This document shows positions 58,140 to 58,621 of a stretch of DNA of 64,000 nt, one piece after another. The translations under genes and the position numbers were made by a program. This DNA comes from a virus. Lineage: Duplodnaviria > Heunggongvirae > Uroviricota > Caudoviricetes. The notes beneath the pieces are model-generated. The model did no database searches, had not been told where the DNA came from, and worked only from the letters and a program-made list of their open reading frames with translations. The stretch lies in IMG/VR virus record IMGVR_UViG_3300032236_001858; one strand, given 5' to 3'. The stretch's first letter is position 1. Every line of letters begins with the position of its first letter.

Positions 58140-58225
58140 GGTGTCGTTATTGTTAACGGAGAGTCGAAAGACGAGCATCTGGCTCTGTGAAAGCCAGGGT
58201 ACGGGTTCAAATCCCGTACGACACC
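58140..58225 (+). tRNA. tRNA-like, His anticodon GTG with a G-1:C73 pair, atypical (about 10 extra nt in the D region)
   Basis: Acceptor GTGTCGT/ACGACAC, anticodon stem TGGCT/AGCCA with loop CTGTGAA, T arm ACGGG-TTCAAAT-CCCGT. The D region runs 58150-58178. Confidence 0.35.
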
Positions 58226-58231
58226 CAAGAA

Positions 58232-58304
58232 GGAACCTAAGCTAATCAGGTGAAAGCACTGGACTGAAAATCCAGGGAGCCCGGATCGTTACCGGGAGGT
58301 TCCA
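58232..58304 (+). tRNA. tRNA-Phe(GAA) variant with a non-canonical T-loop (ATCGTTA), encoded CCA
   Basis: Acceptor GGAACCT/AGGTTCC, anticodon stem CTGGA/TCCAG with loop CTGAAAA, T arm CCCGG-ATCGTTA-CCGGG, then A-CCA. Confidence 0.45.
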
Positions 58305-58315
58305 CCAAAATAAAT

Positions 58316-58389
58316 GGTGTATGTAGCTCAATCGGTAGAGCGTCGGTTTGTGGAGCCGAAGGTAGCGGGATCGTAACCCGTCATTCACC
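58316..58389 (+). tRNA. tRNA-His(GTG) with G-1:C73, non-canonical T-loop (ATCGTAA)
   Basis: G-1 precedes acceptor GTGTATG/CATTCAC (one mismatch). D arm GCTC-AATCGGTA-GAGC. Anticodon stem TCGGT/GCCGA with loop TTGTGGA. Confidence 0.5.
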
Positions 58390-58394
58390 CAAAA

Positions 58395-58466
58395 GGAGAC
58401 TTAGCTGAGACGGTTTAGCGTTTGGTTGAAGCCCAAAAGAGGTCGGTTCGATTCCGGCAGTCTCCA
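58395..58466 (+). tRNA. tRNA-Phe(GAA), canonical
   Basis: Acceptor GGAGACT/AGTCTCC, D arm GCTG..TAGC, anticodon stem TTTGG/CCAAA with loop TTGAAGC, T arm GTCGG-TTCGATT-CCGGC. Confidence 0.6.
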
Positions 58467-58472
58467 CAACAT

Positions 58473-58543
58473 ACGTCATACAGACAAGGTGTCGGTCAGG
58501 TCTCCAAAACCTCGACGGTGGGGTTCGATTCCTCAATGGCGTG
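58473..58543 (+). tRNA. tRNA-like, Trp anticodon CCA, atypical short D arm (71 nt)
   Basis: Acceptor ACGTCAT/ATGGCGT (one G-U pair). Anticodon stem CAGGT/ACCTC (one mismatch) with loop CTCCAAA. T arm TGGGG-TTCGATT-CCTCA. Confidence 0.35.
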
Positions 58544-58549
58544 CTAAAT

Positions 58550-58621
58550 ACGGGTATGGTGTAATGGCTAACATTTTGGTCTCCAAAACCAAAGATCTTG
58601 ATTCGAATTCAGGTACCCGTG
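58550..58621 (+). tRNA. tRNA-Trp(CCA), canonical
   Basis: Acceptor ACGGGTA/TACCCGT, D arm GTGT-AATGGCTA-ACAT, anticodon stem TTGGT/ACCAA with loop CTCCAAA, T arm CTTGA-TTCGAAT-TCAGG. Confidence 0.6.

Follow-up and report, generated by a model that had tools for sequence, protein, structure and literature searches.

We analyzed a block of six transfer RNA (tRNA)-like genes at positions 58140-58621 of a 64,000-nucleotide stretch of viral DNA (Caudoviricetes; IMG/VR record IMGVR_UViG_3300032236_001858), a stretch that we call the window. The genes run head-to-tail on the + strand with spacers of 5-8 nt, and their anticodons follow the order GTG, GAA, GTG, GAA, CCA, CCA, giving two genes each for His, Phe and Trp. 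This order, first given by a first-pass annotation made from the letters alone, is confirmed by ARAGORN, by Rfam scoring and by hand reading with folds. Comparison with related viral sequences indicates that all six are conserved tRNA structures under purifying selection for the tRNA fold. The same comparisons indicate that genes 1 and 5 represent conserved non-canonical tRNA families of huge phages, of which we found no description in the literature searched. Our best overall explanation, to which we assign a probability of roughly 0.7, is that the array is a polycistronic unit of a Mahaphage/Lak-like huge phage and would supply, for each of His (GUG), Phe (GAA) and Trp (CCA), a pair of isodecoders that differ in structure.

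Structure and conservation of the six genes

Four of the genes are canonical tRNAs by two independent tools. ARAGORN calls Phe(GAA) at 58232-58307, His(GTG) at 58317-58390, Phe(GAA) at 58395-58467 and Trp(CCA) at 58550-58622, and the same four genes exceed the gathering threshold of the Rfam tRNA model (RF00005; 29 bits, scored with Infernal). They are gene 2 (Phe-1, tRNA-Phe(GAA), 58232-58307, 52.7 bits), gene 3 (His-2, tRNA-His(GUG), 58316-58389, 55.6 bits), gene 4 (Phe-2, tRNA-Phe(GAA), 58395-58466, 60.4 bits) and gene 6 (Trp-2, a canonical tRNA-Trp(CCA), 58550-58621, 60.1 bits). Phe-1 has A73, a 3-bp D-stem and an 11-nt D-loop and is the only gene of the six with an encoded CCA. In Phe-2 the T-loop is canonical (UUCGAUU), position 37 is G and the variable loop has 4 nt; the Phe-2 family is present on 13 IMG/VR contigs. 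Orthologues of Trp-2 occur in L001 and L277, two of the viral loci gathered for comparison, which are designated by L numbers throughout. The other two genes were read by hand and by folding: gene 1 is His-1, a tRNA-His(GUG) of 86 nt from G-1 to C73 (58140-58225), and gene 5 is Trp-1, a non-canonical tRNA-Trp(CCA) of 71 nt (58473-58543). Identity elements are of the bacterial type across the array. Both His genes combine the GUG anticodon with G-1 (58140 and 58316) opposite C73 (58225 and 58389), the Phe genes combine GAA with A73, and both Trp genes have CCA, G73 and A1:U72.

The unusual feature of His-1 is an extra arm in the D-loop. The gene has an 8-bp acceptor (G-1:C73 plus seven pairs), a D-stem formed by positions 10-13 and 22-25, an anticodon arm UGGCU-CUGUGAA-AGCCA and a canonical T arm ACGGG-UUCAAAU-CCCGU. 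Its D-loop is 19 nt long and carries an inserted mini-hairpin of 10 nt, GUC-GAAA-GAC (58163-58172, + strand), in the beta region 3 nt past G18G19, which is also present in the minimum free energy fold. Since this arm sits between G19+3 and A21 and not between positions 44 and 48, gene 1 is not a class II tRNA. A targeted scan yielded four further distinct homologues, and all four carry a hairpin at the same D-loop site: GUC-GCAA-GAC in L275, GUC-UUCG-GAC in L277, GUCU-GAAA-AGAC in L025 and a longer GUG...CAC in L099. Over the five distinct sequences the cloverleaf is 96.8% paired (fraction of paired cells), with 8 pairs changed on both sides; none of 500 shuffles reaches this value, and slid controls remain at or below 46%. 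The exchange of GNRA for UNCG tetraloops, together with a flipped closing pair, points to a selected structural hairpin. The His-1 genes of L001 and L002 have no hairpin, and an nhmmer search with the His-1 profile found no extra members among the loci searched.

We also considered the insertion as an intron and judge this unlikely: at 10-17 nt it is too small for group I, no bulge-helix-bulge is seen, and the predicted host is bacterial. Moreover, the loop alternates between GAAA, GCAA and UUCG, as expected of a structural hairpin that is retained. Extra arms are found in other tRNAs of these relatives. A tRNA-His with a long variable arm is present in L006/L014 and in L021/L024/L026, and tRNA-Phe(GAA) genes of the Phe-2 type in L099 (4707-4625, - strand) and L025 (4797-4881, + strand) carry a GNRA mini-hairpin at the same D-loop site as His-1; ARAGORN miscalls the L025 copy as Tyr(AUA). 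Judged from these sequences, an extra arm on either the D-loop or the variable-loop side is a recurrent design in this phage group.

Trp-1 departs from the standard tRNA in the opposite direction, by compaction. It has a 7-bp acceptor, a 3-nt linker (ACA), a 3-bp D-stem and a 5-nt D-loop, AAGGU, with the conserved GG. A single linker nucleotide leads to an anticodon stem of 7 bp, in which a C bulges out after ACCU, and to the loop CUCCAAA; then come a variable region of 2 nt in the model (2-3 nt), a normal T arm with the loop UUCGAUU, and G73. Sixteen distinct homologues, most of them supplied by a pattern scan of viral sequences with the Trp anticodon arm, are all 71 nt long and align without gaps. 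Paired cells amount to 96.9%, and 14 of the 22 pairs are changed on both sides, a value reached by none of 500 shuffles and compared with at most 45% for slid controls. RNAalifold independently returns exactly the same structure. Covariation extends to the three pairs added to the anticodon stem (GUC/GAC, CAC/GUG, GGC/GCC and UUC/GAA), and in most homologues the central 54 nt show 92-98% identity despite diverged acceptor and T stems. A BLAST search of 50,697 GenBank phage records matched Trp-1 only in LR756502.1 and His-1 in none. A third, longer Trp(CCA)-like tRNA, with the loop UUCCAAC and an extended variable region, was observed in relatives between Phe-2 and the odd Trp gene (L099 4607-4527, - strand; L025 5043-5125; L002 6246-6335; L001 6326-6412). 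It is absent from that place in the window and is not reported by ARAGORN or Rfam.

The aberrant D regions noted for genes 1 and 5 in the first-pass annotation are thus real, as a D-loop hairpin in the former and as a 3-bp D-stem with a 5-nt loop on a 7-bp bulged anticodon stem in the latter. Could these genes, and possibly genes 2 and 3, be degenerate pseudogenes or ordinary tRNAs read in the wrong register? ARAGORN calls neither gene 1 nor gene 5, and both fall below the Rfam gathering threshold, gene 1 with a partial match of 22.6 bits over 58163-58223 only and gene 5 with a best match of 27.3 bits to the selenocysteine tRNA (tRNA-Sec) model, whose threshold is 47 bits. However, covariation is strong in every helix of both families, conservation covers G18G19, the loops of the T and anticodon arms and the discriminator bases, and genes 2 and 3 score more than 50 bits with no shift of register. 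A pseudogene would show broken helices with no compensation; here, the families of genes 1 and 5 have 8 and 14 double-changed pairs, respectively, and orthologues of Phe-1 and His-2 are compensated too. We consider decay or misreading very improbable. Compensatory changes in all stems across relatives, with intact identity elements, indicate that the unusual copies are selected and look functional rather than decaying, which supports this part of the annotation's interpretation; by comparative structure genes 1 and 5 are tRNAs, though non-canonical, and none of the six appears to be a pseudogene.

An alternative T-loop in Phe-1 and His-2

Phe-1 and His-2 differ from the consensus in the T-loop, which reads AUCGUUA in Phe-1 (58285-58291) and AUCGUAA in His-2 (58370-58376), that is, A54 U55 C56 G57 U58 N59 A60. 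The first-pass annotation had reported these letters correctly but took them to lack T54-Psi55-C56, with consequences for modification and for elbow interactions. This premise is wrong: U55, C56, G57, the G53:C61 pair and the D-loop G18G19 are all retained, and only positions 54 and 58 differ, as a letter swap from U54·A58 to A54·U58. The other four genes of the array have U54 and A58, the letters of the canonical reverse Hoogsteen pair, along with U55 and C56. Predictors do not single out the two loops: covariance-model scoring returns both genes as ordinary tRNAs in the standard register. Re-registering the loop is not a workable alternative; AUCGUUA and AUCGUAA cannot both be accommodated by a shifted pentad or by a sixth stem pair, and the predictors keep the 7-nt register.

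To describe the variation at these positions, we tallied distinct tRNA sequences that ARAGORN calls in the window or in one of 154 viral loci and whose T-loop is 7 nt long, a sample drawn largely by a too-generic Trp anticodon-arm pattern (at least 119 loci) and enriched in related phages as opposed to an unrelated background. Among these 1,230 tRNAs, the 54/58 combinations are UA in 1159, AU in 33, AA in 23, GG in 7, CA in 6 and CG in 2. U58 is accompanied by A54 in all 33 cases, and UU is never seen. Scoring against the ARAGORN consensus would, if anything, penalize A54-U58, which loses two matches, more than U54-U58, which loses one. In the same sample A54-U58 is spread over more than 10 tRNA types (His, Phe, Lys, Ile, Met, Gln, Trp, Asn, Asp, Ser and Leu). 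Because the covariation is strict, with U58 occurring only together with A54, we regard A54-U58 as a structural alternative and not as decay. It is a natural alternative, used by phages and by cells, to the near-universal U54·A58 pair, and the literature that we searched does not name the combination. A54 cannot carry m5U54. Work on the 54-58 pair by Zagryadskaya and colleagues in 2003 is said to have described functional G54-A58 and G54-G58 variants; the 7 GG loops in our tally are of the latter kind.

Orthologues show how the two genes vary around this loop. Phe-1 is 100% identical in L001 and L277. Its counterparts in L099, L117 and L279 carry double changes in the acceptor (GGAACC/GGUUCC to GGAGCC/GGCUCC) and in the anticodon stem (CUGGA/UCCAG to CUAGA/UCUAG) and keep A54, with U58 replaced by A58. 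Six distinct orthologues of His-2 retain A54 with either U or A at position 58, and their T stems covary (GCGGG/CCCGU, GUCGG/CCGAC, GUGGG/CCCAC). The L277 orthologue of His-2, by contrast, has a different T arm in which A54-U58 is not kept.

The same loop is used by cellular tRNAs. One genome of each GTDB species was scanned for a common D arm with GGAUCGUNNCC after it; A54-U58 T-loops were found in at least 120 bacterial and archaeal tRNA loci, and all 120 of the matches listed are tRNAs according to ARAGORN, with loops such as AUCGUGC, AUCGUUC and AUCGUAA. By type these 120 comprise His (39), Lys (19), Met (16), Gly (13) and others, and 70 of the 120 loci hold no other tRNA. They include tRNA-Gly(CCC) on Bacteroidales/Bacteroidaceae contigs, the longest of 419 kb, and on a Blastocatellia contig of 7.9 Mb, and tRNA-Met in Segatella, Phocaeicola and Bacteroidaceae bins. 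The tRNA-His genes, the commonest type among the matches listed, come mainly from metagenome-assembled genomes (MAGs) of Kiritimatiellae, Verrucomicrobia and Lentisphaerae and have the loop AUCGUGC. His-2 itself is 80-85% identical to bacterial A54-U58 tRNA-His genes. Their occurrence in many phyla rules out A54-U58 as a phage-specific mark; since cellular tRNAs use it, the T-loop does not mark a tRNA as phage-derived. On the sequences compared, the A54-U58 loop is a rare natural variant of working cellular tRNAs, including those of the phylum predicted to host the closest relatives of the window, and its presence in Phe-1 and His-2 is not evidence of engineering, as the first-pass annotation had suggested.

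Much of this variation could also be read as neutral or nearly neutral. Under such a reading, constraint would be relaxed in a duplicated array, compensated variants would be tolerated because phage tRNAs need to function only briefly and depend less on modification, and the function would simply be added tRNA supply; were the odd features no more than tolerated, the array would be an ordinary tRNA operon of a phage. The toggling of position 58 between U and A in close orthologues fits this picture, as do the occurrence of A, U or C at position 54 in the Phe-1 family, the divergent T arm of the L277 His-2 orthologue, the missing hairpin in the His-1 genes of L001 and L002, and the existence of the A54-U58 variant in cells. 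However, the Trp-1 core is highly conserved although the acceptor and T stems around it have diverged, Phe-1 is fully identical where its flanks are only ~72-75% identical with 31-37% of the query aligned, and every hairpin loop is a stable tetraloop of the GNRA or UNCG type. These three observations argue for selection on the odd features themselves. We consider neutral tolerance of compensated variants a live rival, possible if somewhat doubtful.

Phage context and possible roles of the paired tRNAs

The window has a guanine-plus-cytosine (GC) content of ~29%. Among the 50,697 GenBank phage records, its only DNA relatives are LR745206.1 (634,780 bp) and LR756502.1 (642,428 bp), both uncultured phages, which share the array order His-Phe-His-Phe-(odd Trp)-Trp-Lys x4-Arg-Ser. 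Pattern scans and protein-anchored scans found many further IMG/VR contigs with related arrays. In the passages of Al-Shayeb et al. 2020 (PMC7162821) drawn on here, the 634- and 642-kb genomes are among the four largest of that study, all of the largest genomes fall in the Mahaphage clade alongside the Lak megaphages, and Bacteroidetes are the predicted hosts of five genomes greater than 634 kb.

What would such a phage gain from two tRNAs of each kind? His and Trp each account for 1.4% of the 15,191 codons in the open reading frames (ORFs) of the window and are the rarest after Cys. Codons of the CGN box, which the co-located Arg(ACG) reads, make up ~0.5%, versus 2.4% for AGA. Given that His and Trp are rare and yet have two genes each, codon supply alone is insufficient, and we rule it out as the sole explanation of the gene content. 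In the explanation that we favor, the six genes would be co-transcribed, RNase P and enzymes acting at the 3' end would process the precursor, and CCA would be added where it is not encoded. The His tRNAs would be charged via G-1:C73 by the host histidyl-tRNA synthetase (HisRS) or by a small HisRS of the phage, and the others by PheRS and TrpRS, after which the charged tRNAs would serve translation of phage mRNAs. The odd features should not impede this: the A54-U58 T-loop is probably compatible with ordinary translation, the insertion site in the His-1 D-loop is expected to be solvent-exposed and variable in length, and the three extra anticodon-stem pairs of Trp-1 may make up for its shortened D arm and variable region. 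A paired design of this kind could keep decoding going once one structural class of tRNA is depleted or cleaved.

Several observations weigh against this explanation. Besides the sub-threshold scores of genes 1 and 5, position 10:25 in the D-stem of His-1 is a U·U, and five sequences are a small number for its family. A54·U58 is not obviously isosteric with U54·A58. The cellular matches are mostly on MAG contigs, and some of these matches may be phage contamination; a few of the loci have 17-34 tRNAs. Directly upstream of the array lies a strong terminator-like hairpin with a T-run (58096-58128, + strand), which ends ~11 nt before the first tRNA gene; counterparts of this hairpin also precede the array in L001 and L002. 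Finally, no convincing sigma-70-like promoter was found upstream of the array in a scan that is uninformative, as it returned 14 candidates where 11.2 are expected by chance.

If the second copies guard against loss of the first, nucleases are a candidate cause. In such a scenario, which gives concrete form to the idea in the first-pass annotation, one copy of each tRNA would be built to escape tRNA-targeting nucleases. A54 would remove the UUC motif, an extra arm or a compact core would block docking of other tRNases, and translation would go on after the host, or the phage's own shut-off, had destroyed the canonical tRNAs. The CdiA-CT(E479) toxin of Burkholderia reportedly cuts between positions 54 and 55. 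The Schlafen nuclease Cash cleaves the UUC motif of the T-loop on the 5' side of U55, and mutation of U54 or of U55 abolishes its activity (PMC13462974); by analogy, resistance of A54 tRNAs is conceivable. Phage tRNAs are known to evade anticodon nucleases, according to the passages of van den Berg et al. 2023 (PMC10264068) used here. In the five genomes compared, at least one A54 tRNA-His is present in all five, and an A54 Phe is paired with a U54 Phe in four, and neither the duplication of His and Trp nor the presence of Arg(ACG) is explained by codon usage. That A54 removes the UUC motif of a published T-loop defense nuclease also makes for a directly testable prediction about phage-host conflict. 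However, nuclease-driven diversification is weakened as an explanation because the identical T-loop occurs in cellular tRNAs, including those of Bacteroidales, and is not specific to phage-host conflict, and both Trp-1 and His-1 retain the canonical UUC T-loop. Furthermore, we know of no nuclease of the relevant host. We consider diversification against such nucleases plausible and hold it as a tentative possibility.

A gene downstream of the array bears on a different role for the extra arms. The ORF at 59944-60576 (+ strand), 1.7 kb downstream, encodes a 210-aa mini-HisRS core (Pfam tRNA-synt_His, 2.7e-26) that aligns to residues 6-140 and 240-315 of a solved HisRS. It keeps motif 2 (FRGE...GRWRQF), RGLDYY, GGGSYD (GGGxYD) and motif 3 (GFAVGVDRL), and has neither the insertion domain nor the anticodon-binding domain. 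We found 1,542 homologues, the best 120 of which are 80-89% identical and lie on contigs of up to 551, 630, 635 and 642 kb. This level of identity among the best 120 points to strong purifying selection, and by sequence the mini-HisRS appears to be widely conserved in Lak/Mahaphage-like phages. The His-1 arm, and possibly the Trp-1 core, could be handles recognized by phage enzymes such as this one, giving partly orthogonal charging. Consistent with this, the mini-HisRS ends a few nt before His-1 in L025 and L028, the mini-HisRS-bearing relatives L021, L024 and L026 have a long-variable-arm tRNA-His within 2.5 kb, and Al-Shayeb et al. (PMC7162821), in the part of the paper used here, proposed that phage aminoacyl-tRNA synthetases (aaRSs) charge phage tRNA variants. 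However, the 634- and 642-kb phages encode the mini-HisRS and yet have a His-1 with no extra arm, so the enzyme does not depend on the hairpin; at many mini-HisRS loci no tRNA-His lies within 4 kb; and G-1:C73 alone is enough for bacterial HisRS. We keep handles for phage enzymes among the live rivals but think them improbable.

These possibilities can be combined. Mahaphage/Lak-like phages might keep a second, structurally marked set of tRNAs made up of those with A54 T-loops, the D-loop-hairpin His and Phe tRNAs, the compact pyrrolysine tRNA (tRNA-Pyl)-like Trp and the long-variable-arm Lys, His and Trp tRNAs. Combined with phage enzymes such as the mini-HisRS, this set would decode in a partly orthogonal way and would still work after T-loop-, anticodon- or elbow-directed nucleases, from host defense or phage shut-off, had destroyed the canonical tRNAs. 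The idea is speculative, and we would be somewhat surprised if it held in full.

Neighboring genes and known systems

The array is part of a longer tRNA region. An HNH homing-endonuclease ORF with an N-terminal helix-turn-helix (58686-59228, + strand; Pfam HNH_4, 5.7e-10) separates the His/Phe/Trp block from a Lys block. A GIY-YIG-like ORF, read from the sequence, lies between tRNA genes at ~5560-4930 (- strand) of L099, and the motif TTCGRACTTAATATATA precedes both homing-endonuclease genes. Homing-linked gene conversion might be one reason why identity between distant phages is very high in some tRNA segments. In the Lys block, a normal tRNA-Lys (59303-59375) adjoins three tRNA-Lys genes with long variable arms (59383-59469, 59478-59561 and 59566-59648; anticodons UUU, UUU and CUU; A73; 53-65 bits in Rfam). 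Their shape is that of class II, to which normally only tRNAs for Leu, Ser, Tyr and Sec belong. This long-armed design is kept in L001, L002, L003, L019 and L025, and of the 94 distinct Lys tRNAs in the viral loci, 19 have a length of 80 nt or more. A YqeY-like protein is encoded near the array, and a second terminator-like hairpin (60893-60923, + strand) precedes an Arg/Ser sub-array. Upstream of the array, part of a non-coding stretch at ~57985-58128 (+ strand), including ...GGTTTAGCAACCAGTTCGGTACTGAAAGTGTATTG..., is conserved in L001 (5880-5925); the stretch ends at the pre-array terminator-like hairpin and may be a small RNA.

Other tRNA-like genes in this region are further from the canonical form. 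Two of them, at 59772-59927 and 60586-60716 (+ strand), are canonical in the acceptor stem and in the D and T arms, with an insert of ~70-80 nt in place of the anticodon arm. The second matches the Rfam transfer-messenger RNA (tmRNA) model at 31 bits, below the threshold of 47. The inserts of both genes share AGUAGUGA..UAAGAG..UACUUCG..UUAA with intergenic pieces in L001 (6413-6489) and L099, and could be introns or a new tRNA-embedded element. A further tRNA-like gene of ~105 nt (59657-59762, + strand) has the acceptor AGUCAAG/CUUGACU, the T arm ACAGG-UUCGAGU-CCUGU, a probable UAA anticodon and a very long variable region; it has no ARAGORN call and only a weak YrlA-like match in Rfam. Within the downstream Ser/Arg part of the arrays of L001 (7302-7661) and L002 (8545-8811), five tRNAs match the tRNA-Sec model best, at 41-48 bits, with two of them reaching the threshold of 47 bits. 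These may be 8/4 or allo-tRNA-like species.

Compared with the tRNA arrays of huge phages in the passages of PMC7162821 drawn on here, the present array is alike in being AT-rich, in sharing its gene order with the 634- and 642-kb phages, in having aaRS genes beside the tRNAs and in encoding tRNAs distinct from those of the host. It differs in that the tRNAs there were counted with tRNAscan-SE and their shapes are not described in those passages. Counts of tRNAs in huge phages are probably underestimates, given that at least two conserved families, the D-loop-hairpin His and Phe tRNAs and the compact Trp tRNA, fall below ARAGORN and Rfam thresholds; judging by these two tools, tRNAscan-SE-type counts probably miss the non-canonical families. 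Literature searches on tRNAs with a D-loop hairpin, and on atypical tRNAs of huge or jumbo phages, brought up no description. The irregular tRNAs of phage clusters described by Mukai et al. 2017 (PMC5389517), namely (8/4) tRNA-His, (8/4) tRNA-Ser and allo-tRNAs, also include a non-canonical tRNA-His in polycistronic phage tRNA clusters and were likewise found only in metagenomes. However, that tRNA-His has no G-1, has A73 or U73 and has the 8/4 arrangement, whereas His-1 has G-1:C73, the normal 7/5 arrangement plus G-1, and a D-loop hairpin.

Trp-1 is most similar to tRNA-Pyl and to mammalian mitochondrial tRNA-Ser(UCN) (mt-tRNA-Ser(UCN); reviewed in PMC7609411), with which it shares a compact core of a 5-nt D-loop, an elongated anticodon stem and a 2-3-nt variable region. 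Like mt-tRNA-Ser(UCN), it keeps G18G19 and a TΨC-type loop. It nevertheless belongs to neither group: it has three acceptor-D linker nucleotides instead of one, a 7-bp bulged anticodon stem, a CCA anticodon with Trp identity elements, and it is encoded by phages of bacteria. Its G18G19 and UUC loop set it further apart from tRNA-Pyl, in which G18G19 and TΨC are lost and the anticodon is CUA. Together with the tolerated D-loop arms, this compact Trp tRNA offers scaffolds for orthogonal tRNA design.

For the T-loops of Phe-1 and His-2, the closest precedents are eukaryotic initiator tRNA-Met and tRNA-Ala(AGC), which have A54·A58 and a purine at position 60 (PMC7912444, PMC7566577). Phe-1 and His-2 resemble them in A54, with no m5U54 possible, and in A60, and relatives of both genes carry AUCGAAA or AUCGAUA, which is the initiator-type loop. 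They differ in having U58 and in being elongator tRNAs of bacterial type. Lastly, in the parts of the sources consulted on phage tRNAs that escape nucleases (PMC10264068; Azam et al. 2024, via PMC13462974), phages likewise carry their own tRNA copies that differ at nuclease-relevant positions. Those published cases involve changes in the anticodon loop. The change in Phe-1 and His-2 includes position 54, one of the two T-loop positions (U54 and U55) at which mutation stops Cash from cutting.

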